A stretch of 64,000 nucleotides of DNA. Origin: a virus. Position 1 is the first letter of the stretch; each line of letters begins with the position of its first letter. Shown here in pieces: positions 12,371 to 45,007 of the stretch. The DNA is taken from positions 1 through 64,000 of the IMG/VR virus record IMGVR_UViG_3300020442_003949, one strand, 5' to 3'. A model generated the notes under the pieces. It made no database searches. It had not been told where the DNA came from and saw only the letters and a list, made by a program, of their open reading frames with translations. The translations under genes were made by a program, and so were the position numbers.

Positions 12371-13831
12371 ATGGCACTACGTTTACGAAGAGGAACAGAT
12401 TTAGAAAGAATAGGTGTAGTCTTTGCAGAGGGAGAATTAGTTTATTCAACTGATACAAAAAGGCTGTTTATTGGTGACGGTGTAACAGCTGGAGGAATAC
12501 CTGTATCAGATTTAATTTCTGATATGTCTCCACAACTAGGTGCTTCGTTAGATTTAAACACATATGACATTGTAGGCTTTGGCAACATAAATGTAAATGG
12601 AGATATAACAGCCTCAGGCACACTAACTGTACCAAACATTATTACTGATGTACAAGGTAGTATTTTTGGAGACGACTCGTCTCCGTTAGTAGACGGTGCA
12701 AATAACAAAATAATTTTAGACAATAATTCAATTACAGACTTATCAGATGTAAACACAACTGGTGTACAAGTAGGAGATGTTCTTAAATGGGACGGTGCTA
12801 CTTGGGTTACTGGTCAAGATTCAGCAGAACTTGCGCTAACAGACCTAACAGATGTCATTACAGGTATTAACGTAGTAGGAGATTTTCTTAAATGGGACGG
12901 TGCTACTTGGATTGCTTCTGCTAGTGAAATATCTGACCTATCAGATGTAGACACAACTGGGTTACAAGTAGGAGATATTCTTAAATGGGACGGTGCAAAT
13001 TGGGTTGCTAATCCAGATGAAGGACAGCTTGAATTAGCAGACTTAACAGATGTGCTTGTAGGTGGTTTACAAGTAGGTGATATTTTAAGTTGGGATGGAG
13101 TTAATTGGACTCCTACGGCAGGTCCAGGTGATATTCTTGAAACTGATATACAAGGTTCTGTTTATGGTCTTGATAGTAGCATAATTGTAGATGCGGCTAC
13201 AGGTTCATTCATAGGTAATTTCACTGGCGCTGTCACTGGCGATATTAATGCATTAAATGTTAATGCTACGAACCTATATGTTACCAGTATTTACGATCAA
13301 CCTACTTTCTATAGTGATACAGTAGGATTTAATAACATAGCGACTTTTGTAAAAGAAACAGAAGTTGATGATACCGTAAATCGTGCAAACATAACTCTTG
13401 TAAGAAAATCTACAACGCTGGACTTATCATCGAGTATAGAGCCTAATGCTACTATTTTATTTGCGACAGACGATACTAATGGATTTACCTATAAAGGTGT
13501 AATTGGTGTTCATAACGACCTTATGACTTTTGCTGTTAATTCAACAGGAAATTTTTCAGACAATAACCAAATTTTTTTAGTTGATACTGGATACTTCGGT
13601 ATAGGAACAAAAACTCCAACAGAAAAATTACAAGTTGAAGGGAATACAAAAATCTCAGGATTTGTACAATTTGGAAGTTACACAACAGCAGAAAGAGATG
13701 ATTTAACAACTACAAACACGCCACAATACGCAACAAATTGGGGAATGGTAATATATAATACTGACACTAATAAATTCCAAGGTTGGCAAAACACCGGAGG
13801 AACTACTCCAGAATGGGTAGATTTGAGTTAA
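12371..13831 (+). CDS. Fibre/decoration-type virion protein with internal repeats
   Basis: N-terminal LRRGT...AEGELVY.TDT..L.IGDG.TAGG typical of phage fibre (Mtd/hyaluronidase-like) N-termini; GIGT.TP.EKL.V.G; IYNTDTNKFQG. Confidence 0.7.
   Translation: MALRLRRGTDLERIGVVFAEGELVYSTDTKRLFIGDGVTAGGIPVSDLISDMSPQLGASLDLNTYDIVGFGNINVNGDITASGTLTVPNIITDVQGSIFGDDSSPLVDGANNKIILDNNSITDLSDVNTTGVQVGDVLKWDGATWVTGQDSAELALTDLTDVITGINVVGDFLKWDGATWIASASEISDLSDVDTTGLQVGDILKWDGANWVANPDEGQLELADLTDVLVGGLQVGDILSWDGVNWTPTAGPGDILETDIQGSVYGLDSSIIVDAATGSFIGNFTGAVTGDINALNVNATNLYVTSIYDQPTFYSDTVGFNNIATFVKETEVDDTVNRANITLVRKSTTLDLSSSIEPNATILFATDDTNGFTYKGVIGVHNDLMTFAVNSTGNFSDNNQIFLVDTGYFGIGTKTPTEKLQVEGNTKISGFVQFGSYTTAERDDLTTTNTPQYATNWGMVIYNTDTNKFQGWQNTGGTTPEWVDLS
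12735..13110 (+). repeat. Four ~100-bp coding repeats (DLSDV...VGDxLKWDGxxW)
   Basis: TTCTTAAATGGGACGGTGC occurs three times, plus a diverged fourth copy. Confidence 0.85.
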
Positions 13832-14628
13832 TAATTATATTTAACTTCTTTACCACGAACAATATATTTTATTATATAGTAAAGAGGATCAAAATCCTTT
13901 AAACTTTTTTCAATAGATACGGTAGCTTTGTGAGGCTGAGCATGATGATTGTTATGCATTTCTTCGCCGAGTAATAATGGTTTGAGCCAAGGTATATTCC
14001 ACGACTTATCGATCGTTTCAATTCTTCTTTCTCCACCTACCATTTTAGCATACTTTGGCGTATGAACTAACGCTATTAATATGGCGTTTACGTGAAATTG
14101 CATTATCGCAGGAATGGCATACAAATATACAAATAAAATTGGATCGATTATTATTAATGTGATTACATAAACTAAAATAATTCCAAAATAATAATTATGG
14201 AAAAATCTGTTTATAGGATCTTTTAGAAGTTGAATATACTTTTTTGCTCCAAACACTAACTTTGTCTCATCATATACGCCCCACCAAGTTTTAAAAAATC
14301 TGTCTTTTGGATTATGCGGATCTTTATCAGTATCTGCGTTTGCGTGATGCTTTAAATGCATTAGAATATAGCCAACAGTTGAACCTGTAGAGCTTATTGT
14401 AAAGAAAAACGAAAAAATTATTTGCCAAAACTTATTAGTAGAAAATGTGTTATGAACATAATATCTATGAACACCTATACCAGATCCTATTCCGTGCATT
14501 AACCAAAAAGTCAGTAATACCATTAACCAATATGTTGATGTGCTGTAATATATGGCTGGAATGATTGCCAAGTGTAAAAACCATTGTAGGCTTTTTACTT
14601 TTCTGTGTGTGGGTTGTAATATTTTCAA
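13828..14628 (-). CDS. Membrane fatty-acid desaturase (delta-9/DesC-like)
   Basis: Three His boxes HRYYVH, HLKHH, HNNHH; DT.KDPH.P; TM segments; TTG start overlapping the upstream TGA. Confidence 0.85.
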   Translation of the reverse strand: MKILQPTHRKVKSLQWFLHLAIIPAIYYSTSTYWLMVLLTFWLMHGIGSGIGVHRYYVHNTFSTNKFWQIIFSFFFTISSTGSTVGYILMHLKHHANADTDKDPHNPKDRFFKTWWGVYDETKLVFGAKKYIQLLKDPINRFFHNYYFGIILVYVITLIIIDPILFVYLYAIPAIMQFHVNAILIALVHTPKYAKMVGGERRIETIDKSWNIPWLKPLLLGEEMHNNHHAQPHKATVSIEKSLKDFDPLYYIIKYIVRGKEVKYNY

Positions 14629-15470
14629 AAAGACTTACCTATTACTTTCTTATTGTCTGTGGTTATTCTGTACAATAGTCTACCACCTAAAGTAGTAGCA
14701 TATCTTTTATGAACAGTTAGCCACTGATTACCTATAATAATATCACCATCATTATATTCATGAATATACATATACTTATTAGATTTATATGTATGATTAT
14801 CTAAATATTCAACCATAGAATCTGATTCTTCTTTTGGAACATCTTTAAATCCAAAAAATTGGAATTTAGGGTAAAACATTCCTTTTAATCCGTTATCAAA
14901 AGTCCGTATAAATTTTTGCCCAGCATTATTTCTATGTGATTTCCATACATTAGATGGAAGATGCTTTGTATATGTGTTTGGTTCAAATCCATATATACCT
15001 AATTTATCTTCTAACCAATCTTTTTTATCATTTGGTAAATCATCATAGGCCAAGCACATATTTAGCCAACCAATCTTACTTCCAGCACTATGCTCAACAG
15101 CATACAACATTACATTAGGTTTTCTCTCTAATTCTGCACTTGGACGATTTGCATGCCAATCTAAATCACTGTCATGTCCAAATAATCCTGTTTGCGATCC
15201 ATCTGGGTTAGTACCAGCACATACTCTTTGAATACCATTCAAACCTGGTATGCCTCTTTGTTGTTGCGTAGTTTCATCTAACAGTTCTAAATCGCCAAAT
15301 CTATTTGCAAATGCAAGAAACTCATCTGCCTCTAATACTTGCCCTCTAATAAAGATAACTAAATGATTTATATATAAATCAGCAAGTAATTTAAAATTAT
15401 CATCATTGAGATTTTTTACATCTATATTAGAAATTTCAATAAAATTGGCAGTCAAGTTTTTTATATCCAT
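14625..15470 (-). CDS. TauD/TfdA-family dioxygenase-like protein (HxN variant)
   Basis: HLVIFIRGQ, FA.RFG, WHAN, AYDDL, GDIIIGN..TVHKR, RLLYR. Confidence 0.75.
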   Translation of the reverse strand: MDIKNLTANFIEISNIDVKNLNDDNFKLLADLYINHLVIFIRGQVLEADEFLAFANRFGDLELLDETTQQQRGIPGLNGIQRVCAGTNPDGSQTGLFGHDSDLDWHANRPSAELERKPNVMLYAVEHSAGSKIGWLNMCLAYDDLPNDKKDWLEDKLGIYGFEPNTYTKHLPSNVWKSHRNNAGQKFIRTFDNGLKGMFYPKFQFFGFKDVPKEESDSMVEYLDNHTYKSNKYMYIHEYNDGDIIIGNQWLTVHKRYATTLGGRLLYRITTDNKKVIGKSF

Positions 15471-16110
15471 TTTTTCTTCTATCTACTTTGTCTGCAATTG
15501 TTTTATATAAGTTATCTATTGATGTATGATATGGTGCATCGTAATATGCATGAAAATTTTCTTTTCTATATAGTATTCGTTGCGGAACATTATTAAATGT
15601 AATAAATTTATCATCCATAGAATATGTCTGCAAAGTTTCTATAGACTCAGCGTCACCTAATTGCCTATATTGTTTATGAATGAGCGACTGGCTCCATGAT
15701 TCTAGTTTTTCATTATATGGATAGATTGTTACAAAAGAATAATGCAAATTCTTAAATTCTTTTGTTGCTGCTGGTATTGTGTGTGTCCATAATGTGCTTC
15801 GTACATCTTTTCTAAATCTTTTAAGAGTATAATAATTCATACCTAATCTAAGGTACTTTCCTTGTCCATAAACTCTTGCTCCACTTATACTAGCAAGTTC
15901 ACCATTATACATAATTCCATATAGTGCGTCTAAAAATAATTTATCCCAATTAGTTTTACTGAATTTCCAAACTTCTTCTTCTAAATTTGAATCATACTTA
16001 GAACTGTAATCTAAAAAATGCTTATGAGAATTATGATCTTGTGTTAAAATTTCTTCTCTAAATCTATATACTAAATCATTATTTGTATCTAATTTAATTA
16101 ATTGTATCAT
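15436..16110 (-). CDS. Hypothetical protein, possibly GNAT-like fold
   Basis: YGIMYNGELASISG...LRL...YYTLKRFRK resembles a GNAT core; weak. Confidence 0.45.
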   Translation of the reverse strand: MIQLIKLDTNNDLVYRFREEILTQDHNSHKHFLDYSSKYDSNLEEEVWKFSKTNWDKLFLDALYGIMYNGELASISGARVYGQGKYLRLGMNYYTLKRFRKDVRSTLWTHTIPAATKEFKNLHYSFVTIYPYNEKLESWSQSLIHKQYRQLGDAESIETLQTYSMDDKFITFNNVPQRILYRKENFHAYYDAPYHTSIDNLYKTIADKVDRRKNGYKKLDCQFY

Positions 16111-16122
16111 ATTGTTTTGTAA

Positions 16123-16773
16123 TTAGTTAGTTAAATTCCACATCTTTTCAAACGTATAGTTTCCTTTTAATCTAAGCGATATCAAATGCCGTTCCTTATT
16201 TCCTACAAGTGCCTTATGCGGAATGCAAGTATTAAGAACATAAGGATTTTTTTGTGAAAAGTAGTAATAATTAAAGTCGTCAACTTCTTGTTCTACATGC
16301 AATGCAGGAATATTAAACTCATTATATTTTTCCTTAGAAATAATCCACTTTCCACTTTTATCGTACCAAGCTTTATTAGTAACGTAATTACTTCCAGTCC
16401 AAACTATAACACTATCGTCACAATTACAGAGTGGTATATTCAATGCACATTTGACAATACAATCAAGTTTTGCATTATAATCAATATGATATTTTACTAT
16501 TTGTCCTTGTTTATTAGAGGAAAACGTTTTAAAATAAACTGCATAATCTAATTGCGGTAATTTTAAATCCGTTAACCATTTATCTATAATTTTCTTGTGC
16601 TCATAAGATATTTCATATCTGTCTAAAACTTCTATTCTATTAGTTATATTAGTATTGTCTAACTGACATTTTTCTTTTCTATAGATATCAAAAAATACTG
16701 AAGGAATATTAATCTCTAATTCTTTATAATAATTATATAGTTTCGTTAATCTTTTTCCAACTGTGCCAATCAT
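16123..16773 (-). CDS. Putative Fe(II)/2OG (cupin) oxygenase-like protein
   Basis: HID...LNIP...NT.IPH....R..ISLR pattern; start uncertain. Confidence 0.55.
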   Translation of the reverse strand: MIGTVGKRLTKLYNYYKELEINIPSVFFDIYRKEKCQLDNTNITNRIEVLDRYEISYEHKKIIDKWLTDLKLPQLDYAVYFKTFSSNKQGQIVKYHIDYNAKLDCIVKCALNIPLCNCDDSVIVWTGSNYVTNKAWYDKSGKWIISKEKYNEFNIPALHVEQEVDDFNYYYFSQKNPYVLNTCIPHKALVGNKERHLISLRLKGNYTFEKMWNLTN

Positions 16774-17467
16774 ATATTCTTTCTTTTTTAGGATTTTTTA
16801 TACCTGCTGCATGATCTACATTGCCTAATGACGATATTTTGATTGATGTTGCTTCATGCTTATTTATCTGCTCTGTAATATATGCTACAAACTTTGTATT
16901 TTGTAAATTGTCACCAACCCAAGGATCTCCCCAACATAATGTGTATTTTTCATCTCCATTATTATCCATTCCATGGAGGGCGGCGCCACTCATAAGATAT
17001 CCTGTCCAATCATTAGGAATAGGAACACGATTATTTTTCTCATCAATATAATATAACGGATTATTTTCTCTACCTTTCAAAACTAATCTTAATTTTGGTT
17101 CTAAAGTTTTCAGCTGATCTGCATAACAATCTGTATGATGCCTCATTTTCATTCCTGGCATTGTTCTAATAATTATTATTCGAGGCCTTATATCTGTCAT
17201 TGGAAAAATAAAATTATTACACAATTCTCTAAGGGATTTACAATCTTTTGTATATGGCAACCAATCCATATTTTTTTTATTGTTCACATCTTCATTTCCG
17301 TACAAACAAATCAAATAACTTTCTCGAAAGGTGCACCAATACCAATGCTCATTAGGTATAGCATCAATCTCTTCAGCCATTTGTGCTAAATCTTCATCTG
17401 TAACAGGAAAATCTAATTTCATTGCTGCAATATCTAATAGAGTAGAAAGCAGTCTATCATTCTTCAT
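16733..17467 (-). CDS. Asp/Asn beta-hydroxylase-like Fe(II)/2OG protein
   Basis: RIII...PG..M.HHTD...LHG..N. Confidence 0.55.
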   Translation of the reverse strand: MKNDRLLSTLLDIAAMKLDFPVTDEDLAQMAEEIDAIPNEHWYWCTFRESYLICLYGNEDVNNKKNMDWLPYTKDCKSLRELCNNFIFPMTDIRPRIIIIRTMPGMKMRHHTDCYADQLKTLEPKLRLVLKGRENNPLYYIDEKNNRVPIPNDWTGYLMSGAALHGMDNNGDEKYTLCWGDPWVGDNLQNTKFVAYITEQINKHEATSIKISSLGNVDHAAGIKNPKKERIYDWHSWKKINETI

Positions 17468-18113
17468 TTTTTAAAAATATCCTTTCATCACCTGAGTCCC
17501 ATTTTATTTCAACATTTTTTTTATTTTCTTTCATCTTCTTTTTTTCTTGAGGTTGAATTGGCGTTATATGTAATTCGTCTATATTACAACTTACAGGACT
17601 CTCAATTATCCATTGTACATACGCAGCAATATCTTCTTGCTTAAAATGATGAAAATGACTCCATTGATGCATAGTCTTATCAGTATCAACTCCACCGAAG
17701 CTAAAATAAGTTGTTTTGATTTTACTATCAAACCAATTTACATGCTTTGATAAGGATCTATTCAAATCTCTTAAGGCACGTTTTTCAATTGGGTACAATC
17801 TATTATCTGGTCTAAAATAATAATCTACAGCAGATCCAAAACTAATTATATGTCCACTTTTATTATTGTCTTTCCATTCTGTCCAAACATATTGTAACAG
17901 TTTTGTTTGTGCAAAATCAATTAATAGTGAAGAATTTATAAAAACATCATAGTTCATACTAATTTTTGCTACTTTCTTAAGATTTTCCGATGTTAATAAA
18001 TCTAAAGTATATGTTGCGTCATCCGATCTAGATATAGTATGAGCTGTTGGATATAATTCACATATTGCTTTAGCTATATTTTTTTTTGGGTTTCCAGTTA
18101 ATAATATTTTCAT
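17457..18113 (-). CDS. Short-chain dehydrogenase/reductase-like protein
   Basis: KILLTG...IAKAI, DVFINS, GHIISFGS, YxxxK (YPIEK), GGVDT. Confidence 0.75.
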   Translation of the reverse strand: MKILLTGNPKKNIAKAICELYPTAHTISRSDDATYTLDLLTSENLKKVAKISMNYDVFINSSLLIDFAQTKLLQYVWTEWKDNNKSGHIISFGSAVDYYFRPDNRLYPIEKRALRDLNRSLSKHVNWFDSKIKTTYFSFGGVDTDKTMHQWSHFHHFKQEDIAAYVQWIIESPVSCNIDELHITPIQPQEKKKMKENKKNVEIKWDSGDERIFLKNEE

Positions 18114-19703
18114 TTATAAAATTTTTTGTAAATAATTATTTTTTATATTAATTCTTCTTGCAATAGCATTTTCAACAAAGTCTAAATCATCATAATATAA
18201 ATCTTTAATTTCTTCATGCGTATAACCAATGTTTTTCATTCTATTATAATATTGAAATATACTCATACTTTTTTTCTGTCGTGCTCTACTATCATCATAG
18301 AATTCTTTTTCTAATTCAATTGCTTTTTCTACAGTTAAACAAGTATTAGTCCATCTATTATTATCACGCTCCTTTTCCATTGAATAACCATAAGCAGCTG
18401 GATTAGCAAATATTTTAGATACATTTTCATAAACATATCCTTTTGGTGTTTTGTAAAATCCAGCATTTTCTAAATTATATTTTTCAGCATCATCTACTGA
18501 TATTATCGGAGGAACCGAAAATGCATATCTATTCAATTGTATACCATCTAATGGATTATCTTTCCTATATAACCATTCCATTGTTTCCCTAATACTTGCT
18601 TCGTCTTCATAAGGCAAACCTACAATGAATCCTGCTGCTATATAAACTTTCTCTTTCCATATATCTTTTAACATATGCAAATCTTTTTCAATTATTTTTC
18701 TATCACCTCTTTTTCCAATAAACGATCCTGTTTTTTTATTCATAGTTTCTATGCCAAATTCAACAGATCGCAACCCTATTTCTTCTAACATGTAAGGCAT
18801 TTCTTTTGACTTTGACATTATTTCTAGTCTAGAATATGCGCTAAATTCAATTTTAAATGGCAATTCAGATATTACATCATATAAAAACCTTACTTTATTC
18901 ATACTATCATTAAGCGTATCATCTGAAATCATATATCCAGTTGTACCATATAACTCATAGTTTCTAATAAATTCTTCTTGCAATACTTCTTTTTCTTTTG
19001 TGTAATCACCAAATTTTTTACCATTTAGATTAAATGCACAAAAACTACACGCAAATACACATCCTCTAGCAGTTTCAATAGGTAAATTTTCATTTTCAAA
19101 AATATAATCAGTCTTATCATAAATTATTTTAGACTTGCTGAAATCATTATATTGGTACATTTTTTCAGTAATAATATTACCCCAATCGGTTTTTATTGTT
19201 TTTAACGGTGTACTATATTTTAAATGGTTAGCAAGTGCAACACTAGATCGTTCTGCCTGCCCTAATATCCAATAATCAACACCTTGTGTATCATAATTAG
19301 CTGCCTTATATCCACCGACTACAATTTTTGCTTTGTTATTTTTACTTTTTATAAATTCAAAAATAACTCGCATCTCATCGTCTATTAAAGGAAATAATCT
19401 AACATAATTACTAGCTATTATTGTACGTAAACTTGTATTAGTATTTAAATATAATTCTTTTAAATCGTGATCTGAAATATATTTAGTCCATAATGTTGTT
19501 GAAAATCCTACAAATAAAGTAGATTTATCTACATGAACACTTAATATTCTGCAAATAGTATTAATATCAAAAGATGCAAAAAAATCTATAACTTGAACAT
19601 TAAAACCATGTGATCTTAATTCTGTTGCAATTCTATAAGGTCCTGCATATCTGCTAACGCCGAAAACACCATTGACATCAGAAAATATTATAATTTCAGC
19701 CAT
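18114..19703 (-). CDS. B12-binding-domain radical SAM protein (class B methylase-like)
   Basis: N-terminal GPY.IA..LR..G, FVGFST, IVVGG; IETARGCVFACSFC; SDDT, FGIET, GFIVGLP.E. Confidence 0.85.
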   Translation of the reverse strand: MAEIIIFSDVNGVFGVSRYAGPYRIATELRSHGFNVQVIDFFASFDINTICRILSVHVDKSTLFVGFSTTLWTKYISDHDLKELYLNTNTSLRTIIASNYVRLFPLIDDEMRVIFEFIKSKNNKAKIVVGGYKAANYDTQGVDYWILGQAERSSVALANHLKYSTPLKTIKTDWGNIITEKMYQYNDFSKSKIIYDKTDYIFENENLPIETARGCVFACSFCAFNLNGKKFGDYTKEKEVLQEEFIRNYELYGTTGYMISDDTLNDSMNKVRFLYDVISELPFKIEFSAYSRLEIMSKSKEMPYMLEEIGLRSVEFGIETMNKKTGSFIGKRGDRKIIEKDLHMLKDIWKEKVYIAAGFIVGLPYEDEASIRETMEWLYRKDNPLDGIQLNRYAFSVPPIISVDDAEKYNLENAGFYKTPKGYVYENVSKIFANPAAYGYSMEKERDNNRWTNTCLTVEKAIELEKEFYDDSRARQKKSMSIFQYYNRMKNIGYTHEEIKDLYYDDLDFVENAIARRINIKNNYLQKIL

Positions 19704-20355: not shown

Positions 20356-20362
20356 AATATAC

Positions 20363-21142: not shown

Positions 21143-21144
21143 AT

Positions 21145-22802: not shown

Positions 22803-22812
22803 TTATAAACCA

Positions 22813-27919: not shown

Positions 27920-27921
27920 TT

Positions 27922-34758: not shown

Positions 34759-34824
34759 TCTGCACTTAAAATATTAGTATCATATTTAATTGTTGTATTA
34801 TAAATCATAAATTAATTTTATATC
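34759..34824 (-). repeat. Direct repeat copy A; contains a 23-aa remnant ORF (34737-34808) mimicking the N-terminus of the 33630 gene
   Basis: MIYNTTIKYDTNI-LSAE versus MIYDTTIIYDTEIFLSAD. Confidence 0.8.
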
Positions 34825-37529: not shown

Positions 37530-38745
37530 TTCTAGTATTGCCGTAATGAATTACAATATAATTAGGATCATTAAATTTACGCCACGGATCAACAACAATA
37601 GAACCTACTGGTATATTGCAGTATAAAGAATCATGTTGTTCTTGATTCATATACGAATAGGTAGTAGTAGCTGAATGAGCAAGCAAAACTACACAAGGTG
37701 AAGTAGGAACAAAATTGTCGCCTGTTTGAGGATCAATGTATTGTGGTGTAATACCGTATTCTTCGCAATAATGGCCAATTAATATAGAGTAACTTCCTTC
37801 TTCGTACGGCACGTTAGGTTTATATGCTTTACCATGAATTAAAATAGGAAATCCGGATTTTTTTGATTCCTGCACTAATTTGCCAGCTAAATTCTTTGCT
37901 TGTATTTCTCTAGCTGTCATTATAGCATCAAACAAATCATACCCTAGCCCTAAATCGTCAGCCATGTATCGTAACGCAATATTATCTCTAGGATGACAAG
38001 CTCCGCCGTCGCCCATGCCTGCTTTCATATATTGCGGACCCATTATACGCCAGGTAGATTTAGCTAAAGCATCTGTTACAATATCAACATTTATATTTCC
38101 TTGTATTTCTGCTACATCTTGAATCATATTCACTAGAGATAATTTTGCTGAAATAAAAGTATTGTAAAATACTTTTATACATTCGCATTCGTCCCAAGTG
38201 CCAACAATATAACGTGGCTCATTCTGCATTATAGTCTTATAAAATTCAACTAATTTTTTTGCAGGACCTGTTTCTTTGCCGTCTTCGGTTCCTATCATTA
38301 CCATTTCAGGATTTACCATGTCCCACGCTACACTGCCCATAGCAATAAGATAAGGATTATACACAAATTCACAGTTTGTAACTAAAGGTGCTAACTCTCT
38401 GCGAACGGTTCCTGGCAAGACTGTTGATATTAGAACTAGGAGTTGAGATTTTTTCATATAATGATTTGCTTCTTTTAGCACAGATTTTGCTATATCATAT
38501 GAAAAATCTTTTGGAGGTAAATCTACGATAGGTGTTTTGCCATCGTATCTTGTATCGTGTGGTGTAGGTACTGCTACAAATACAATATCTTTTCCTTCAA
38601 CTACTTCTTTGATTGATTCAACAACTTTGACGTTATTTGACTTAACAGATTGTACATCATAACCATCAACTTGATAACCATTTTTTGCTATTTCAGTAGC
38701 ACAAGGCATACCTAATTTTCCTAAACCAATATATCCAATCTTCAT
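37522..38745 (-). CDS. ugd: UDP-glucose/GDP-mannose dehydrogenase family
   Basis: GLGKLG, VAVPTP, STV.PGT, K..YN, GGACHPRD with catalytic Cys, AYKP. Confidence 0.85.
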   Translation of the reverse strand: MKIGYIGLGKLGMPCATEIAKNGYQVDGYDVQSVKSNNVKVVESIKEVVEGKDIVFVAVPTPHDTRYDGKTPIVDLPPKDFSYDIAKSVLKEANHYMKKSQLLVLISTVLPGTVRRELAPLVTNCEFVYNPYLIAMGSVAWDMVNPEMVMIGTEDGKETGPAKKLVEFYKTIMQNEPRYIVGTWDECECIKVFYNTFISAKLSLVNMIQDVAEIQGNINVDIVTDALAKSTWRIMGPQYMKAGMGDGGACHPRDNIALRYMADDLGLGYDLFDAIMTAREIQAKNLAGKLVQESKKSGFPILIHGKAYKPNVPYEEGSYSILIGHYCEEYGITPQYIDPQTGDNFVPTSPCVVLLAHSATTTYSYMNQEQHDSLYCNIPVGSIVVDPWRKFNDPNYIVIHYGNTRNV

Positions 38746-38746
38746 C

Positions 38747-40036
38747 TTATTCCTTATTAAAAAAGTCTAGTAAAATTGGTATTAAATCTGTCTGATAATA
38801 CCAATTTTCAACATTCTTTACCGTATATAAATTATGTAATAAATCTGGTAGCATTTCATATAAAATTGATACCCATTGATTATCTGGTATACCATACAAC
38901 CTGTCAAATTCTTTTAAAACCTTCCTAAGCCTTTGATGATTGTCATCTATTTCATCATAACTGTGATCTATCCATTTATCAAACATTCTATATCCATAAC
39001 TTCTTAATGCAGCTACATTACCTTTTGGACCAGCAACAATAAAAGGCTGTAGCATTCCAAAAGGTTTAAATGACTTTTCTGTTATAAATGGAACTTCTAC
39101 CCTATCTTCCCATGTTTCACTCACTAATTGAAAATAACTTTTTAAAGTATGTATCCAACCCACTCTATCAGCTAAATTGATATCTAAATCTAAATTGTTG
39201 TGATTTTTACTCATATCATTTGCTTCAATTATTTTACAATGAATATCTCCAATTTTATGTAATTGTTCAAATTCTTTTTTATATTCGGAAAAATCCTCTG
39301 CCCAAGAATAATTTCTTAATTGTTCTGCATCACAAGGAGCACATTCGGTAAATCTACCTAAACTATATAATGCTCTATCATATCTATGATGCATTTGATG
39401 AGCTACTATTACAACTCTAGCCTTTCTAGGCCTCCTATTATAATTTAATGATTTATACGGAACACGTTCTTTTCTTATAATAGAATGAATTTTTTCTTGC
39501 TGATTTTTATTTGATATCGGATCATCCCATTGTATAAACCTTTCTAAATGTCTACCAGCAACTATATTATAAGCATTTTTAGTTCCTAGCTTACCTTTAT
39601 ACTCGCCTACTGCATGTGCTCCTGTTATTATAGTAATATTACTAGGTACAGTAAATAAAGCATTACAAAAATTCCCTATATGTGGATCTGCATAACCATC
39701 AAATGCGTTACATTCTGTGTCATCACATATTAGCCAGTGTACTAAACCATTTTCACTGTCTTCTTTTATCCGTTTTGACATAGGAAAAACACCTGGATTA
39801 TAATCCAGGGATTGCCAATCACCGAAAATGAAATCTAATTCACGGCGAGCATGAGAAAAAATAACATACTTGCTGCCAACAGGTAAGTCAAAAATTGTTT
39901 TATAAGTGTATAAACTTAATTTATCATAACTCTCTTTAAACATGCTTAGTGTACATATGGGTTTCACATCATTTCGAGGTATACCTACAAAAAGTTCTTT
40001 TCCTATTTTTGTAATTAGAAAAACAATTTCTGTCAT
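38747..40036 (-). CDS. Putative glycosyltransferase-like protein (TEK motif family)
   Basis: LNYNRRPR..R, LVSET, FITEKSFKP....QPFI, LR.YG, IDHSYD. Confidence 0.5.
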   Translation of the reverse strand: MTEIVFLITKIGKELFVGIPRNDVKPICTLSMFKESYDKLSLYTYKTIFDLPVGSKYVIFSHARRELDFIFGDWQSLDYNPGVFPMSKRIKEDSENGLVHWLICDDTECNAFDGYADPHIGNFCNALFTVPSNITIITGAHAVGEYKGKLGTKNAYNIVAGRHLERFIQWDDPISNKNQQEKIHSIIRKERVPYKSLNYNRRPRKARVVIVAHQMHHRYDRALYSLGRFTECAPCDAEQLRNYSWAEDFSEYKKEFEQLHKIGDIHCKIIEANDMSKNHNNLDLDINLADRVGWIHTLKSYFQLVSETWEDRVEVPFITEKSFKPFGMLQPFIVAGPKGNVAALRSYGYRMFDKWIDHSYDEIDDNHQRLRKVLKEFDRLYGIPDNQWVSILYEMLPDLLHNLYTVKNVENWYYQTDLIPILLDFFNKE

Positions 40037-41439
40037 TTTTTATTATCCCAATAAAAATCATACATTTCAGGAAAAGTTTGTAAAAAATTTGTATCTCTAC
40101 GCCTATCATGCTCATCTACAAAAATTATAAAATCTTTCCTGTGTTGTTGTAAATCAACACTGTCAAAATTATTATCTTTAAATATATCAACAATCCTTTG
40201 AAATTTTGCAAGTTCCCATGAATAGAAACCGTAATTTTCTTTTCCTCTTATATTTCTATACTCAAGATTATTTTGCATAAAATCTCTATATTTCGTAAAA
40301 TGCTCTGACCAATTTTTGTATCCTATGAATATAGACTGATGTTTTGGCCAACGTAAGTAAGGTGTATCTAATATAATTGGAATTGCTTTATTTGTTCCAC
40401 CAAATTCTAATTTAAGTTCTAAAATATCTTTCAAAAATTTATCAAAAGAAAATATGCTTAAAACATTGAACGTGCTTGTGCATGTAAATGTACAATTTGG
40501 AACTTCTATTAGTATTCTTCTAATATTATGTAACCATTTATTGTAATCTAGTCCATATCTAATATAATTTGCTTGATCGCCGTATGCTTCTGCACTTGTA
40601 AAAATTTTTAATTTTTTTACTTTCCTTTGCCCACCAATAATTTTTATTTTTTCTACAAATTTATTCATTATTTCATCTGTAGGACAAAGATTACTATTGA
40701 TAGAAAATTCTAAATCAGGCCTTGGATTCAAAATTAAATCATCAAGAATTTTAAATGTATCTTTTGTTAAAAGAGGTTCTCCTCCTGTAATCCTGAAATG
40801 CTTTAGATCGTTTGCTAATGTAGGCCACCATTTCCAAAAAGCTTCTACGTAAGGATTATGTTCTTTATTAGGAATAGGCATGTGATCATGCCTTTTTAAC
40901 CAACTTAAATCATGCAAATTTGAACTAGTAGGATAAGGCCCATATTCATTTATTTCTTCCATCCATTTACTACTTACTTGCGGAGAACAATAACTACATT
41001 TAAAATTACAAACACTACTAAAACTAACTTCTAAATAAGATGGATTTACATTCTTTTTCCAATGAGAATTTATAATGTCATTTACATAAGGTTGTGCCCA
41101 CCATTCGTAAGACTTAAACATTCTATCACTTAATATAGAATCATTATTGTCCTCTACTTTCCAACAATAATCGCACTCACTAGGCCTTTTACCTTCTAAC
41201 ATTTCTTTTCTTGCAAGTTTTTTCCAATAAGTGTTATGCAATGCACTTGGGTGATGATTAACTTCGTCTAATGGTATTTTATGCGGTTCAGGATGATGAC
41301 AACTGTGAGTTAATCCATTATGTAAATGTAATGTTACTTGCTTCCATTTTGCTGTACAAAAAGTAGGAGATATATTATCTAAAACCGATTCTTTATAATT
41401 TTTTACTTTCTGCAAAAAATTGTTTTCTTCAATACTCAT
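40033..41439 (-). CDS. Radical SAM protein with N-terminal Twitch-like domain (family C)
   Basis: FC.AKW, SCHHP, CDYCW..E; EVSFSSVCNFKCSYC....SS.W; TGGEPL. Confidence 0.88.
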   Translation of the reverse strand: MSIEENNFLQKVKNYKESVLDNISPTFCTAKWKQVTLHLHNGLTHSCHHPEPHKIPLDEVNHHPSALHNTYWKKLARKEMLEGKRPSECDYCWKVEDNNDSILSDRMFKSYEWWAQPYVNDIINSHWKKNVNPSYLEVSFSSVCNFKCSYCSPQVSSKWMEEINEYGPYPTSSNLHDLSWLKRHDHMPIPNKEHNPYVEAFWKWWPTLANDLKHFRITGGEPLLTKDTFKILDDLILNPRPDLEFSINSNLCPTDEIMNKFVEKIKIIGGQRKVKKLKIFTSAEAYGDQANYIRYGLDYNKWLHNIRRILIEVPNCTFTCTSTFNVLSIFSFDKFLKDILELKLEFGGTNKAIPIILDTPYLRWPKHQSIFIGYKNWSEHFTKYRDFMQNNLEYRNIRGKENYGFYSWELAKFQRIVDIFKDNNFDSVDLQQHRKDFIIFVDEHDRRRDTNFLQTFPEMYDFYWDNKK

Positions 41440-42359
41440 TCTGGATCAATTACTTTCTTAGATATCCGTGTAGGATTCATATAAACTGTTTTAAAAAATT
41501 TACTTTGCTTAAAATTTAACGGCTCTCTCGCAATTGGAAGATTCAACTGTTTAATTAACTGTTCCCCAGTAATATGTATTTGATTTTCAAGTTGAGCTAA
41601 TGAAAATTTTTCATATTCTGTAAACCATAAATTGTTCAAATATTGAAAATCTCTTACATTTACGTAATTCCAATTAGAACACATAGTTTTAAACAGACCT
41701 TCTCTAGCGCCCATAATAGCCCAATTACCATTTTCAACATCTGCACCAATCATCAACCATATATATAGTCTGTGTAAATTTTTCCAGTGATTTTCTTTAA
41801 ACTGATCTAATGTAGGTTTAACACCTTGATCAAGTGCCATTTTTACGCCTTCGCGAAATCCTGCTCGCCAAGCTTGATGTGGAGTTGCATTATTATATAT
41901 ATCAGAAAAACAAGAATTCATCTGTATATATTCTACATCCCAACAAAAATCTACTTGAGCATGTGGATTATCTTTATCTGCATTCTCATGAGTTTTCATA
42001 TTTAAAACAAATTCTTTAGGCCAACATTTTACTCCACCATTACCATACATAAGTCCATTTATTACATTATAGCCGCACCATGAAATAACTTTATTTTCTA
42101 ATTCTATATGTTCTTCAAAATCAATTTCCTGCGTTAAAAAATGTTCTCTTATACGATTATCACCATCAATTGTTACAAATCTATCTGTTTCAGATAGATT
42201 TGCACAGGCCTTGTGCGCTGAATCAGAACCTTCTACACCATGCACTCGTTTTGCCCAAGGAATTTTTTTGCACAAATCAGCGTAATTTTGTTCTGCGTTA
42301 GGCTCGTCATAACTTAGAAAAATAACATCATAATCTAAAACTTTAAATTTAGTAGACAT
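41436..42359 (-). CDS. Glycosyltransferase-like protein (GT-A), paralogue of the 35871 C-terminal domain
   Basis: DVIFLSYDE.NA, RVHGV.G...AH, IDGDN, YGNGG.K, WRAGFRE; probable ATG 42359. Confidence 0.7.
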   Translation of the reverse strand: MSTKFKVLDYDVIFLSYDEPNAEQNYADLCKKIPWAKRVHGVEGSDSAHKACANLSETDRFVTIDGDNRIREHFLTQEIDFEEHIELENKVISWCGYNVINGLMYGNGGVKCWPKEFVLNMKTHENADKDNPHAQVDFCWDVEYIQMNSCFSDIYNNATPHQAWRAGFREGVKMALDQGVKPTLDQFKENHWKNLHRLYIWLMIGADVENGNWAIMGAREGLFKTMCSNWNYVNVRDFQYLNNLWFTEYEKFSLAQLENQIHITGEQLIKQLNLPIAREPLNFKQSKFFKTVYMNPTRISKKVIDPE

Positions 42360-42912
42360 ACCCGACTCTTTCATAATTGTAATCAAAAATTTTATTTGTA
42401 TAAATGCTAATCAAACTACCTTCTTTGTTATGTTCAAATTCTTCAGAAAAATCTATAATGAAATAATGTTTTTTTATTAGTTGTTCTAAGTCAACTTGTA
42501 ATTGTTTATAAAGAATATTTGGATTATTAAATTCCGTTACACTAAAAAATAGTTGGAAATTATCTAAAGCAATATTTGTTTTACACTCTACTTCTAATTG
42601 ATCATTAATCAGGAATTTCCAACATACTTCATCACAACTTTGAATTATTGTAATTCCAGATCTATCAATATTTTGTGGAATTTGGTAAAGAATTTGATTT
42701 ATATTTTTAGAGAAAACATCTATTTCATTTTTCTTTTTAAATTCATATATATTTTTTGTTTCATTAAATTCTACAAAAAATTTGTTTGATGATTCTTTTC
42801 CTTCATGAATTAATTTTACATCTTCTATATCTACCTCAACAAAATTCTCCAAAGGCTGAATATTAGTAATAGAAAGAATTTTTCCATTGTCTGGATTAAA
42901 TTTTACAAACAT
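42349..42912 (-). CDS. Hypothetical protein
   Basis: 187-aa ORF packed between neighbours. Confidence 0.6.
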   Translation of the reverse strand: MFVKFNPDNGKILSITNIQPLENFVEVDIEDVKLIHEGKESSNKFFVEFNETKNIYEFKKKNEIDVFSKNINQILYQIPQNIDRSGITIIQSCDEVCWKFLINDQLEVECKTNIALDNFQLFFSVTEFNNPNILYKQLQVDLEQLIKKHYFIIDFSEEFEHNKEGSLISIYTNKIFDYNYERVGYVY

Positions 42913-42914: not shown

Positions 42915-43739
42915 TTATATTCCTAAATACTTTTCATACGTACTTACAATACTTTCAGTTGCAAAATCATTATTTACATAATGGAATATTCCATCTTGCA
43001 AATAATTACCAATATACAATTTCAAGTCATTTGTAAGATATACTGGAACTTTATCTTGCCAATTATCTTTAACTGATTGCCAATCTTGAACATAGGGTTT
43101 CATATGAACAAATTTTAAAAAATCTACTTTTCTATTTGTTATTTCCGTATCATTATTTAGAATTTTACTTGCAATTGCACAAGTTAAATCCATACTAGGT
43201 TGCTTTGGATAAAATTCTTTACAATATTGACCATAAAAAAGTTCCCAATTTTTTGAAATTAATTCTACCCAAGTAAAAAAATCTTGCGAAGACGGACTTT
43301 TCTTAAAATAATGCAAACCGTTATATAAATTAGGTAAATTATTATATGTAAATGATTTCCTATAATAATCATTAGTGATTAATGTAGATCTATAAGTAAA
43401 AACCTTAGATAAGTAAAATAAATTATAATTTTGAAAAAAATTCCACCACGCATCTAACTGATTTAAAACTAAAATATCAGTATCTAATACAATTGTTTCG
43501 TCATAAGGACTATTGTGATAAATTTTCCATCTATTAAGCACATCATATCTTGAATTATCATGCTCTATCCAAGAAGGTTTTATTACAAAATCAAAAATGC
43601 TTTTATATTTTTTTGGAACTCTTGAATTAGTGATTATTGATATTGGAATTTCTGAATTAATCTTTAAACTAACAGCAGCCAAGCAAGCCTGTTTGACATA
43701 AGAATTACCTTTAGCATAAAATACATATCCTTTAGACAT
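42915..43739 (-). CDS. Glycosyltransferase-like protein (GT-A, SPYDET..LDTD)
   Basis: Y...A..A.S.K, SPYDETIVLDTD, YFKK, FVHMKP; ATG 43739 after AAGGA. Confidence 0.65.
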   Translation of the reverse strand: MSKGYVFYAKGNSYVKQACLAAVSLKINSEIPISIITNSRVPKKYKSIFDFVIKPSWIEHDNSRYDVLNRWKIYHNSPYDETIVLDTDILVLNQLDAWWNFFQNYNLFYLSKVFTYRSTLITNDYYRKSFTYNNLPNLYNGLHYFKKSPSSQDFFTWVELISKNWELFYGQYCKEFYPKQPSMDLTCAIASKILNNDTEITNRKVDFLKFVHMKPYVQDWQSVKDNWQDKVPVYLTNDLKLYIGNYLQDGIFHYVNNDFATESIVSTYEKYLGI

Positions 43740-44634
43740 TTTTAAATTCCTTATCAATGCATCTATTTAAACTAAACTTATTCATTACATGAACTGATAA
43801 ACCATTTGTAACTGCTAGTGTATATTCTCCTAAATAATCTTCTTTTTCTAACAAGAATGTTATTTTTTGGTCTTTAATATTGTAACAGATATCTTTATCT
43901 GTAGTATAGTATAACCTTCCTGGCATAGATTTTGCGAAATCACCTTCTGTATAACCATTCATAATATGAATAGCAATACTAAATGCATGATCATTTCTAA
44001 AATAAGATTGATTAATTTGGAAAATTGATCTATAATGATTCCAGTTTTCTTGTATGTGTTGAACTAAATCAAAAAATATTCTATTTTCTTTAGATTTCCG
44101 AAAAAATACTACAGTAGCCCAATAAAATTTAACTCCTATGTCATTTATATACGTAAATTCATTAGATTTTCTGAATAAAGTTAAATCACATGCATCATGA
44201 TAAATTAAAAAATTATTATTTTGCTGAAAACACTGTAAATATTGATCATTACATAAAACAATATCTGTGTCTAATAATAATGTTTCATCATACGGAGAAA
44301 TATCATAAGCTTTTGATCTTAATTGATTTTTAAATTGTAATTTAATTCTAGTTAGGGTGCCATCTCTATAATTTTTATAAAAATGATTTTCTGTTGTGCT
44401 TAATACCGTATTTTCATTATTATTTTTTTCCGACCAAACTACTTCTATAATATTATCAAAAACTTCCTCTGCATCTTGATATTGTTTTTTTAGATATTCT
44501 AAACTATCTGTAACTACTGTTGTAGGTAAATTAAGGTAATATTTTACTTTTTTTGCAAGAAAATATGCCTGTTTTAAATAATCTATTTTTGCATTATTCC
44601 TTGCAAAAAGTAAAATGCCCGCAGATTTATTCAT
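43732..44634 (-). CDS. Glycosyltransferase-like protein, paralogue of 42915
   Basis: SPYDETLLLDTD, WATVVFFRKS, RND.AFSIA, HVMNK. Confidence 0.65.
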   Translation of the reverse strand: MNKSAGILLFARNNAKIDYLKQAYFLAKKVKYYLNLPTTVVTDSLEYLKKQYQDAEEVFDNIIEVVWSEKNNNENTVLSTTENHFYKNYRDGTLTRIKLQFKNQLRSKAYDISPYDETLLLDTDIVLCNDQYLQCFQQNNNFLIYHDACDLTLFRKSNEFTYINDIGVKFYWATVVFFRKSKENRIFFDLVQHIQENWNHYRSIFQINQSYFRNDHAFSIAIHIMNGYTEGDFAKSMPGRLYYTTDKDICYNIKDQKITFLLEKEDYLGEYTLAVTNGLSVHVMNKFSLNRCIDKEFKNV

Positions 44635-44978
44635 AAATTAACTAAATTTTCTACAGTTCTTTGTTTTTTAATCTGACTATATTCAGTGAGATATTTATTT
44701 GTTGCTCGAAAGTAAACATCTAAGATATCTTTAAAAAAAGACTTTAGATCTTCTATATATATTGGTATATTGTTATCATCTACTAAAATTAATTCATCTT
44801 GATTATTACGAATCATTATATCACAAAAAGAAATTAATTCTTTTGAAACTGTAAATTGACTACCATTTGTATAATATATAGAATTTTGAGCGAATTGCTC
44901 TTGAAATATTTTTGTTTGATTGTGAAGTGTAACCATGTAATTTGAAAAAGCTAATGCTTTCTCTAATTTTTCATCCAT
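44631..44978 (-). CDS. Hypothetical protein, first gene of the enzyme cluster
   Basis: AGGAG RBS; 115 aa; LVDDNN.P. Confidence 0.7.
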   Translation of the reverse strand: MDEKLEKALAFSNYMVTLHNQTKIFQEQFAQNSIYYTNGSQFTVSKELISFCDIMIRNNQDELILVDDNNIPIYIEDLKSFFKDILDVYFRATNKYLTEYSQIKKQRTVENLVNL

Positions 44979-44999
44979 ACTTCTCCTATAAATGTATTT

Positions 45000-45007
45000 T
45001 ATTTATA
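45000..45007 (-). promoter_or_regulatory. T4-type late promoter motif at the head of the enzyme cluster
   Basis: TATAAATA on the minus strand ~21 nt upstream of ATG 44978. Confidence 0.55.

Follow-up and report, generated by a model that had tools for sequence, protein, structure and literature searches.

A radical SAM-rich enzyme island behind the fibre genes of a marine jumbo myovirus: a possible pathway for a tailored glycan on a fibre-associated protein

Introduction

The closest described counterparts of the locus analyzed here are found in marine T4-like phages. Pelagimyophages and cyanomyophages carry a host-recognition cluster (HRC) that includes radical SAM cassettes (Zaragoza-Solas et al. 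2020, PMC7029224), and a T4-like marine EVG carries 12 radical SAM genes (Nishimura et al. 2017, PMC5332604). These two papers annotate the genes and propose modification of the host O-chain, and nothing further. Both noted how numerous radical SAM genes can be in phages of this kind, but no function was given.

Viral glycosylation is better established elsewhere. Mycobacteriophage capsid and tail-tube proteins are glycosylated (Freeman et al. 2023, cited in PMC12801897), as is the capsid of chlorovirus PBCV-1, whose glycan machinery includes A64R. In these two systems, soluble virus-encoded GT-A transferases adjoin structural genes, and sugars are added in the cytoplasm with no need for the export machinery of the host, features that resemble those of the locus described below.

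Here we examine a 64,000-nt stretch of DNA (the window) from a contig that represents part of the genome of a jumbo myovirus of the T4 superfamily, marine and uncultured. Its 34-gene enzyme block is best explained as the enzyme half of the phage's host-recognition island. As in the HRC phages, which are likewise marine and T4-like, a hypervariable island lies downstream of a giant VrlC-type gene, and both hold fibre genes, glycosyltransferases (GT8 being prominent), a UDP-glucose dehydrogenase, and radical SAM cassettes. Unlike the HRC phages, the present phage is a member of a jumbo lineage (relatives of at least 256 kb; CheckV estimate about 350–390 kb), and its island does not have the gp14 neck gene as its far boundary in the window.

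Results

Organization of the enzyme block

The ORF listing of the window contains 34 co-oriented minus-strand ORFs of 89–552 aa that span positions 13,828–44,978. Their junctions abut or overlap, with the largest gaps being 125 bp (27,797–27,922) and 80 bp. The block is preceded by T4-type baseplate hub and wedge genes, a giant ORF, and the fibre-type genes u05 to u01. The giant ORF continues beyond the window (L001:1–4848) to a total of ~5,505 aa. Among the fibre-type genes, u04 encodes a tail-collar domain, u02, u03, and u04 have an N-terminal attachment domain in common, and u01, which accompanies g01–g05, encodes a Ser/Thr-rich protein of 308 aa. The hairpin at the other end of the block is probably a bidirectional terminator. 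Thus, a preliminary description of this DNA was right that the block directly continues the tail genes, although it counted about 32 genes.

Table 1. Locations of features in the window.
Feature	Position	Strand	Details
Giant virion structural gene, 3′ part	52331..64000	-	VrlC-like; phrog_10938 (virion structural protein)
u05–u01	45038..52310	-	five fibre-type genes; tail-collar and fibre PHROGs
Second TATAAATA copy	45988..45995	-	precedes u01
TATAAATA	45000..45007	-	T4 late-promoter type; 21 nt before g01 ATG, AGGAG between
g01	44631..44978	-	115-aa conserved protein; orthologue is RsoM2USA ORF354
g02, g03	42915..44634	-	paralogous GT8 (glycogenin-like) glycosyltransferases; profile E 6e-5; invariant DxD
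g04	42349..42912	-	187-aa protein; RsoM2USA ORF351 at same position
g05	41436..42386	-	GT-A-fold glycosyltransferase; invariant DGD motif; helical C-terminal domain
g06	40033..41439	-	N-terminal-twitch radical SAM; NF033640, 331.7 bits; orthologue RsoM2USA ORF349, 39% identity
g07, g08	37522..40036	-	g07 paralogue of g14, weak GT10 lead; g08 UDP-glucose/GDP-mannose dehydrogenase family (Ugd)
g09	35871..37529	-	multi-domain GT-A protein, g05 paralogue; fused to g05 in some relatives
g10	35027..35890	-	class I SAM methyltransferase by fold; N-terminal helical domain
g11	34798..35067	-	small conserved protein, probably 53–73 aa; marine phage clade only
g12, g13, g14	32780..34718	-	g12 kinase-like HxDxxxxN; g13 HxD...H; g14 paralogue of g07
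g15, g16	30597..32787	-	SPASM-type radical SAM paralogues; g15 in conserved core
g17, g18	27922..30583	-	N-terminal-twitch radical SAM paralogues
g19	26985..27797	-	QueC-like PP-loop ATPase; SGGADS; TRSC...CxxCxxC, QueC-like Zn motif
g20	25577..26980	-	most conserved N-terminal-twitch radical SAM; NF033640, 412.5 bits
g21, g22–g24	21660..25584	-	g21 sulfotransferase-like motif only; g22, g23, g24 radical SAM; g24 in conserved core
g25–g34	13828..21657	-	variable distal tailoring set: g25 cupin/AspH-like; g26 nitroreductase; g27 methyltransferase; g28 B12-binding radical SAM; g29 SDR; g30 and g31 HxD...H; g32; g33 TauD; g34 membrane fatty-acid desaturase
Hairpin	13794..13820	.	between convergent g34 and fibre-like gene at 12,371–13,831

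Promoters in the source genome and its relatives

The block had been taken for a late operon. Indeed, a TATAAATA motif is present at its head, and the contig encodes a gp55-type late sigma factor. The motif occurs eight times in the window where 19.7 copies are expected, and three of the eight (12,330; 45,000; 45,988) are sense-oriented and 20–40 nt upstream of a start. However, 9 of 11 distinct related loci have an 11–12 of 12 match to the sigma-70 consensus TTGACA-17-TATAAT upstream of g01 at the same position, a match reached by 1.3% of background windows. The sigma-70 consensus is the early-promoter type in T4-like phages. With this promoter at the same spot in most relatives, the case for late transcription of the block is weak. 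The relatives' promoter fits early expression, unlike what is predicted for an accessory of purely structural genes, and so argues against a glycan made for the fibres.

The island keeps its place behind fibre genes

The same island was found at 49 loci in IMG/VR, with 7–13 radical SAM genes per 21 kb in each, and the order u02-u01-g01 onward is kept in many of them. In the source contig and three further long marine contigs, which were all of those inspected, baseplate wedge, giant protein, fibres, and island follow one another on the same strand. The same linkage is seen in a distant cultured phage, Ralstonia phage RsoM2USA, which is syntenic with the proximal half of the island (g01–g06, g09, g10). 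There, the fibre-type ORF355 is followed by orthologues of g01, g02, g03, g05, g06, g09, and g10 with 28–44% identity, ORF351 occupies the place of g04 with no sequence match to it, and the block lies downstream of baseplate genes and the virion-confirmed giant protein ORF361. The fact that the position behind the fibres is conserved in marine relatives and in RsoM2USA supports a glycan destined for a fibre.

A bacterial counterpart is present in Bdellovibrionota chromosomes, where a core of GT-A, methyltransferase (g10 in the island), g20, g15, and g24 sits among GT2 genes and a carbamoyltransferase gene. In the isolate Bdellovibrio sp. HCB2-146, a fibre-type protein of 1,355 aa that carries an endosialidase-chaperone domain is encoded ~6 kb from this core. 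This setting favors a fibre-linked glycan. On the other hand, an S74-type fibre gene was found near the module in only one of the five Bdellovibrionota genomes checked, which speaks against a link to fibres.

Glycosyltransferases and their likely acceptor

Of the roughly six glycosyltransferase-like proteins proposed in the preliminary description, four are supported (g02, g03, g05, g09), with intact DxD motifs in the two GT8 and the two GT-A/GT2-like enzymes, and two (g07 and g14) are possible. All are promoter-proximal, as described, and the Ugd-family enzyme (g08) and two methyltransferases (g10, and g27 through weak Pfam matches) are likewise borne out. Fusions of g05 and g09 in some relatives tie the transferases together.

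The nearest solved structures to g05 include ppGalNAc-T, ThuS/SunS, and A64R, the glycosyltransferase of the chlorovirus capsid. For g02 and g03, the resemblance is to the protein-priming GT8 glycogenin. These neighbors include protein- and peptide-glycosylating enzymes and favor a glycan on protein, although the matches to the GT-A fold are of a generic kind, at low TM scores of about 0.3.

Among the 34 island proteins, 33 are soluble, and membrane segments were found in the terminal desaturase g34. No flippase, polymerase, ligase, initiating phosphoglycosyl transferase, or ABC exporter was found in the phage island. Because flippase, polymerase, and membrane proteins other than the desaturase are absent, an acceptor located in the cytoplasm, for example a virion protein, is favored over classical host-surface polysaccharide assembly. 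Nothing but this desaturase, which belongs to the variable distal set, speaks for a glycolipid product.

These observations bear on the idea that the enzymes remodel host LPS, capsule, or another envelope glycan and thereby block superinfection. That role was proposed for the pelagimyophage HRC glycosyltransferases (PMC7029224). GT8 enzymes are frequently LPS-directed, an early-type promoter precedes g01 in most relatives, and the Bdellovibrionota loci resemble polysaccharide clusters, with many GT2 genes, a carbamoyltransferase, and at one locus (L088) an 8-TM protein. Yet the phage island has none of the export and assembly functions listed above, a late-type promoter heads the block in the source genome, and the strict position behind fibre genes in very distant phages would be left unexplained. 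We consider host surface conversion rather improbable.

Radical SAM enzymes

The ten radical SAM enzymes previously proposed are all intact with CxxxCxxC, and 8 of the 10 exceed the Pfam cut-off. They form three paralogue families plus one B12-dependent enzyme. Although g16 is weak against Pfam, its paralogy with g15 and g23 is clear (E 5e-32). In g20, g06, and g17, an N-terminal Cys cluster precedes CxxxCxxC, the arrangement of NF033640 (N_Twi_rSAM, twitch domain-containing radical SAM protein); these three pass the cut-off of this family and g18 falls below it. Identity of g20 is 72–89% across the 49 phage loci and 50–61% in Bdellovibrionota. Its sole match among solved structures is SkfB (E 0.008), with no close solved relative.

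An auxiliary Fe-S cluster domain accompanies the radical SAM core in BtrN, the type twitch enzyme, and in MoaA, which act on sugars or nucleotides, and in the peptide enzyme SkfB. The island enzymes share this design, but the island twitch enzymes carry the auxiliary domain at the N terminus instead of the C terminus, and sequence similarity is marginal. Moreover, we know of no NF033640 member with a characterized reaction, and the family name gives none, which weighs against assigning these enzymes to a glycan.

The SPASM-type enzymes also weigh against it, since their best families are peptide or protein maturases and not sugar enzymes. The best NCBIfam matches of g15, g16, g22, and g23 are MftC, PapB, anSME, and a tungsten-enzyme maturase, all scoring far below cut-off (for MftC, 29–34 bits against 265). 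These matches fit a RiPP-like pathway, in which SPASM/twitch enzymes would cross-link, epimerize, or edit a protein (a fibre, u01, or g11) to which sugars would then be added and methylated, as happens in glycocins or mycofactocin. Such a pathway would also suit the resemblance of g05 to the S-glycosyltransferases ThuS and SunS and the presence of g11 as a conserved small ORF between the methyltransferase and g15. Furthermore, the mycofactocin pathway (MftA–F, MftM) has a similar make-up, in which a conserved gene for a small peptide is joined by a SPASM radical SAM enzyme, a GT2 enzyme, and an O-methyltransferase for sugars. However, the island lacks MftB, MftD, and MftE, and g11 is conserved over its whole length, has no Cys and no leader/core layout, and is missing from Bdellovibrionota and RsoM2USA, which share the cores. 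A search for further conserved small ORFs found none besides g11, and RRE/PqqD, peptidase, and exporter were not detected. We consider a RiPP-like product unlikely.

Other tailoring enzymes

Assignments for SDR g29, nitroreductase g26, PP-loop ATPase g19, and desaturase g34 are supported. The window additionally encodes FolE and QueE-like proteins. Five Fe/2OG-type oxygenases had been proposed; TauD g33 stands, g13, g30, and g31 have the HxD...H motif with no HMM support, and g25 falls below the cut-off for Asp/Arg hydroxylase. The sulfotransferase (g21) and the kinase (g12) were not upheld by HMM searches, leaving a motif for the former and HxDxxxxN with an ABC1 match at E 0.05 for the latter.

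Pathways for aminoglycoside and nucleoside antibiotics typically employ twitch and B12 radical SAM enzymes together with SDRs, methyltransferases, and oxygenases, and a diffusible metabolite or cofactor of this kind could act on the host or on competitors. Solubility of the enzymes other than g34 is compatible with such a product, and the QueC-like g19 together with weak viperin and MoaA matches of g22 and g24 points to nucleotide-directed families. Nevertheless, an exporter, a resistance gene, and a scaffold-forming enzyme (cyclase, aminotransferase) were not found, the operon is headed by four glycosyltransferases with protein- or polymer-type folds, and the linkage to fibre genes would go unexplained. 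We regard a small molecule as decidedly improbable.

Phage DNA glycosylation and radical SAM-dependent thymidine hypermodification are both known, and the transferases and radical SAM enzymes might instead decorate modified phage DNA bases to evade restriction. The early-type promoter of relatives and the FolE and QueE-like genes would suit this function. In RsoM2USA, a second and divergent member of the thymidylate synthase family might be a hydroxymethylase, and base modification with subsequent glycosylation is for that reason conceivable in this phage. Against it, one relative (G001, 256 kb, 72% complete) yielded neither a thymidylate-synthase-family nor a TET/JBP gene, although the TET control was uninformative, a core among GT2 genes and a carbamoyltransferase in bacterial chromosomes is an unlikely setting, and the island lies inside the fibre module, not with replication or nucleotide genes. 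DNA hypermodification is very unlikely.

Discussion

The enzyme set and layout fit a pathway that builds and tailors a glycan, as first suggested. We infer, tentatively and with confidence short of probable, that the island builds a radical SAM-tailored glycan in the cytoplasm on a fibre-associated protein. The transferases would assemble an oligosaccharide on a phage protein, with u01, u02, or another fibre or fibre-associated protein as the likeliest acceptor. The radical SAM enzymes, and the N-terminal-twitch NF033640 members in particular, would act on sugars or sugar nucleotides by C–H activation, with epimerization, dehydrogenation, deoxygenation, or C-methylation as possible reactions, and the remaining enzymes may oxidize, amidate, reduce, and methylate.

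The mycobacteriophage and PBCV-1 systems are not known to include radical SAM enzymes and have far fewer tailoring genes; glycosylation has been demonstrated in them, whereas here it is proposed from gene content. The number of radical SAM genes is not in itself new. The conserved cores, the synteny with RsoM2USA, and the Bdellovibrionota counterpart are absent from PMC7029224 and PMC5332604. In this reading, the fixed core (GT-A, methyltransferase, g15, g20, and g24) would make a common scaffold, and the swappable radical SAM paralogues would diversify it in parallel to the hypervariable fibres.

A 34-gene radical SAM island follows the fibre genes

The island consists of 34 ORFs (g01, promoter-proximal, to g34, distal) that abut or overlap at every junction save the two largest gaps, of 125 and 80 bp. 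Five fibre-type genes (u01–u05) lie upstream of g01 on the same strand, one of which encodes a tail-collar domain and three of which share an N-terminal domain. A giant ORF comes next, which leaves the window and totals ~5,505 aa, and past it are baseplate wedge and hub genes. The source is a linear IMG/VR viral contig of 91 kb (CheckV completeness 23%), of which the window represents bases 1–64,000, and its remaining portion carries a gp55-type late sigma factor gene, gp46/47-type nuclease genes, and a portal gene. These genes, along with those of the baseplate, identify the virus as a T4-superfamily myovirus. The GC content is 26–32%, with a steadily negative GC skew.

A hairpin closes the block, separating g34 from a convergent fibre-like gene, beyond which are CobS/CobT-like, exonuclease, and FolE/QueE genes. 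The BMP-family lipoprotein gene probably has an auxiliary role in nucleoside or purine uptake, and offers a possible clue to the host. No QueC gene was identified beside the GTP cyclohydrolase I and QueE-like genes; a QueC-like PP-loop protein, g19, is located inside the radical SAM island, away from this arm. The phrog_1314 gene is named an HNH endonuclease in PHROGs, and its size suggests a CobT/vWA-like partner for the adjacent CobS/MoxR-like ATPase. This pair may be relevant because g28 of the island is a B12-binding radical SAM enzyme.

Coordinates of the island, its surroundings and related loci
Feature	Source	Coordinates	Strand	Remarks
Island, g01–g34	Window	44,978 down to 13,828	−	34 ORFs, 89–552 aa
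g11	Window	34798-35067	−	Conserved small ORF
g19	Window	26985-27797	−	QueC-like PP-loop protein
BMP-family (PnrA-like) periplasmic substrate-binding lipoprotein	Window	1175-2281	+	Solved bacterial homologues, E 6.5e-73
GTP cyclohydrolase I and QueE-like radical SAM genes	Window	3238-4778	+	7-Deazaguanine pathway
CobS/MoxR-like ATPase (phrog_1297), then phrog_1314	Window	8449-10916	+	
Fused g05-like and g09-like GT-A domains	Related loci L009, L010, L024	L009:4101-7481; L010:3139-6207; L024:582-3506		970–1,130 aa
Near-perfect sigma-70 promoters	Related loci L016, L017, L027, L028, L031, L049, L050, L008-L010	~20–50 nt upstream of g01 orthologues		
ORF347-355	Ralstonia phage RsoM2USA (L123)	MG752970: 215949-223553		All annotated hypothetical
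Second, divergent thymidylate-synthase-family (PF00303) gene	Ralstonia phage RsoM2USA	7739-8398		
8-TM protein flanking radical SAM/GT2 cluster	Bdellovibrio sp. HCB2-146 (L088)	L088:15209-16840	+	No Pfam match
Fibre-type protein flanking radical SAM/GT2 cluster	Bdellovibrio sp. HCB2-146 (L088)	L088:17251-21315	−	

Ten radical SAM enzymes form four groups

All ten radical SAM enzymes counted in the preliminary description are real, with the CxxxCxxC motif kept in each. Eight of them score above the PF04055 cut-off; g06 (26–27 bits) and g16 (16.9 bits) do not reach it, yet each retains the motif and is clearly paralogous to members. Paralogue comparison resolves the ten into an N-terminal-twitch group (g06, g17, g18, and g20), a SPASM-type group (g15, g16, and g23), a radical SAM pair (g22 and g24), and the B12-binding enzyme g28. 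A search of cultured-phage proteins gave weak matches only for g24 and nothing for g28, for which a pattern scan of IMG/VR was likewise negative.

The whole-protein model NF033640 (N_Twi_rSAM; curated cut-off, 170 bits) recognizes g20 (412.5 bits), g06 (331.7 bits), and g17 (191.9 bits), whereas g18 (142.5 bits) is under the cut-off and is therefore only a divergent relative. The layout of this family is present, wherein an N-terminal twitch-like cysteine cluster precedes an intact CxxxCxxC. Indeed, C31, C93, and C96 along with C149, C153, and C156 are invariant in an alignment of the four proteins and their relatives, and residues 12–97 of g20 match the Pfam SPASM domain. Fe–S carrier genes (PF01521), which have been reported for some T4-like EVGs, were found neither in this contig nor in four related records.

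Glycosyltransferases and tailoring enzymes accompany the radical SAM enzymes

The paralogues g02 and g03 match glycogenin in profile searches (GT8, E 6e-5) and have an invariant DxD motif. The predicted structure of g05 (pLDDT 84) comprises a GT-A domain and a helical domain, and its best fold matches are RmlT, polypeptide GalNAc-transferases, the S-glycosyltransferases ThuS and SunS, TarS, and chlorovirus A64R. Its paralogue g09 is a multi-domain protein. For g10, the predicted structure (pLDDT 89) is that of a class I SAM methyltransferase.

Several other enzyme assignments made from the sequence at the outset also hold: the Ugd-family enzyme (g08), the methyltransferases (g10 and, by a weak match, g27), the SDR (g29; profile E 2e-9), the nitroreductase (g26), the PP-loop protein (g19, with SGGADS and a QueC-type Zn motif), the TauD-family enzyme (g33), and the membrane fatty-acid desaturase (g34). 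In contrast, the kinase (g12), sulfotransferase (g21), and oxygenase (g13, g30, and g31) calls have a motif basis only. PDB-sequence profile searches returned nothing useful for g05, g10, g20, u01, g30, or g31. The unknown ORFs gave marginal matches only in PHROGs and relaxed Pfam searches, and the Atlas search yielded for g07 a below-threshold GT10 lead and nothing else.

The island is widespread among marine phages and has a cultured counterpart

DNA searches revealed no similarity between cultured phages and either half of the region. Orthologues of g20 with 72–89% identity occur at 49 IMG/VR loci, where the common order is u02, u01, g01, g02, g03, (g04), g05, (g06), g09, g10, g11, (g12), g15, (g16), g20, variable radical SAM paralogues, g22, g23, and g24. 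Radical-SAM-like genes number 7–13 per 21 kb (median 9) at related loci, and up to 19 per whole record. Radical SAM enzymes occupy roughly half of this 21 kb, and metagenomes hold more than 2,600 protein clusters (90% identity) of g20 orthologues; a very abundant ocean phage group therefore invests heavily in this chemistry. In some relatives, among them L009, L010, and L024, the g05-like and g09-like GT-A domains are fused. Two public MAGs with cellular labels, ‘Rickettsiales’ MAG MED657 (L101, NZHE01000012) and ‘Gammaproteobacteria’ MAG MED685 (L103, NZGL01000008), include contigs with the phage island. T4-type gp6 wedge genes are present in these MAGs as well, which shows that phage contigs were binned into them.

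In Ralstonia phage RsoM2USA (344 kb), orthologues of the genes in the proximal half of the island keep their order. There, ORF355 has a fibre-type N terminus, ORF354, ORF353, and ORF352 correspond to g01, g02, and g03, and ORF351 occupies the place of g04. These are followed by ORF350 (g05, 44% identity), ORF349 (g06, 39%), ORF348 (g09-like, 40%), and ORF347 (g10-like, 28%). Upstream of this block are baseplate genes and ORF361, a giant-protein gene whose product has been detected in RsoM2USA virions (PMC8504454). Because of its gene order and genome size, the marine clade is placed, from sequence, with the XacN1/RsoM2USA-type jumbo myoviruses; related records reach at least 256 kb, and the size of about 350–390 kb implied by CheckV fits this placement. 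The proposed linkage to tail and fibre genes is also borne out by synteny. It is kept in RsoM2USA and in three long marine records, in which the island lies downstream of a gp6-type wedge gene on the same strand.

The promoter class at the head of the island differs from that in most relatives

The sequence TATAAATA lies 21 nt upstream of the g01 start. It is rarer in the window than expected (8 copies versus 19.7), and three copies are positioned just upstream of gene starts in the sense orientation, which makes the use of TATAAATA-type late promoters in this genome plausible. The first gene has TATAAATA at about −10 and the genome encodes a gp55-type sigma factor, as in a T4-type late transcription unit. 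However, 9 of 11 distinct related loci instead carry an 11–12/12 match to TTGACA-17-TATAAT upstream of the g01 orthologue, a score reached by only 1.3% of background windows. Sigma-70-consensus promoters are the early type in T4-like phages. Thus, the late expression suggested in the preliminary description may hold for this genome, judging from the head of the block, but cannot be generalized to its relatives; an exchange of promoter class seems to have taken place at this one position. Within the block, sigma-70-like and terminator-like sites occur at chance level.

A sister module resides on Bdellovibrionota chromosomes

When one genome was scanned for each prokaryote species, g20 homologues with 50–61% identity turned up at 57 Bdellovibrionota loci, several of which are on multi-megabase chromosomes and one of which belongs to the isolate Bdellovibrio sp. 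HCB2-146. Most of the 57 loci have g15 and g24 nearby, and about half have GT-A (g05/g09-like) and g10-like genes. Housekeeping genes, rpoD and dnaG among them, are neighbours of these loci alongside several GT2 genes and the genes for a carbamoyltransferase and a QueC-like PP-loop protein, which argues that these are chromosomal loci rather than prophages. The module is patchy in this phylum (8 of 201 sampled genomes), and a FastTree phylogeny places the phage and Bdellovibrionota g20 clades as sister groups. Homologues from the candidate phyla radiation, in a Parcubacteria contig of 1.27 Mb (L107) and in Dojkabacteria (L099), branch deep in the same tree; L107 also encodes g15- and g24-like proteins and about seven twitch paralogues.

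In HCB2-146, ~6 kb separate g20 from the gene for a fibre-type protein of 1,355 aa whose C-terminal domain is of the endosialidase-chaperone type. A test of whether the Bdellovibrionota module is generally tied to S74-type fibre genes was negative: such a tie was seen in one of five genomes, and large ORFs are present in only 17 of the 57 loci.

This cellular setting bears on whether the island might serve DNA hypermodification, in which its enzymes would act on phage DNA. The second thymidylate-synthase-family gene of RsoM2USA could encode a pyrimidine hydroxymethylase. Searches of the marine relatives G001 (256 kb) and G002 gave no match to PF00303 or PF12851, although these genomes are incomplete and the TET search gave no match in any control genome. 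The chromosomal context in Bdellovibrionota weakens this explanation.

The island may tailor a glycan on a phage protein

The window represents a large and well-preserved example of an island type already in the literature rather than a first sighting. Radical SAM genes have been recorded in large numbers from T4-like marine phages, with no function assigned to them (PMC5332604). The same holds for the radical SAM cassettes and glycosyltransferases of the pelagimyophage host-recognition cluster, which likewise lies with fibre genes downstream of a giant VrlC-type gene (PMC7029224). That cluster extends to the neck gene gp14, and its genome is of ~150 kb, whereas the island in the window ends at a convergent fibre-like gene and related records reach at least 256 kb.

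Our tentative reading, to which we give somewhat less than even chances, is that the transferases would build a glycan in the cytoplasm on a protein of the phage, the simplest candidate being one associated with the fibres, and that the radical SAM enzymes would edit the sugars of this glycan. This reading is favoured because the block opens with four transferases whose catalytic motifs are intact, along with a sugar-nucleotide dehydrogenase and a methyltransferase, and because a fixed core comes with swappable radical SAM paralogues. Moreover, its place behind the fibre genes is kept across very distant phages while the rest of such islands is hypervariable, and the cellular counterpart resides in glycan-type neighbourhoods. 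The island proteins are taken as soluble, since a hydropathy scan found transmembrane segments in the desaturase g34 alone, and they come without export or polymerization machinery. In having soluble virus-encoded glycosyltransferases that adjoin structural genes, the island resembles at gene level the virion glycosylation systems of mycobacteriophages and chloroviruses.

The same genes might instead convert the host surface or make a diffusible metabolite. Against the former, the membrane components of surface-polysaccharide (Wzx/Wzy/ABC) systems are lacking: no Pfam match was found for an initiating phosphoglycosyl transferase, flippase, polymerase, or ABC exporter.

Peptide or protein maturation is a further alternative, for which g11 is the candidate precursor. 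Its annotated TTG start is probably too far upstream, and its relatives conserve ~53–73 residues, in which NI.qFNK.AHHnS.nWY.aVI.WY is invariant and a GPG lies close to the end. However, g11 is the sole conserved small ORF found in a search for such ORFs and is confined to the marine phage clade. It is conserved throughout, with no C-terminal core layout, and is absent from the shared cores. Mycofactocin-like RiPP features are also wanting, as MftC scores are 29–34 bits versus a cut-off of 265 and no RRE partner was detected.

The glycan reading is made testable by the presence of the proximal half of the island in cultured RsoM2USA and of a second core common to cultured Bdellovibrio. A broader proposal, which we regard as speculative and rather unlikely, is that N-terminal-twitch radical SAM enzymes are a new sugar-editing class that, with the GT8 and GT-A enzymes, writes a hypervariable glycan code on the fibres with which very abundant marine jumbo phages bind their receptors, and that the sister module acts likewise on surface structures of predatory Bdellovibrionota. 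If true, host or prey recognition, or adhesin protection, would rest on radical chemistry on carbohydrates that has no known precedent. If the product is a fibre glycan, it would be the first virion glycan known to be tailored by radical SAM enzymes, would give NF033640 its first substrate, and would bear on host recognition and host-range diversification.
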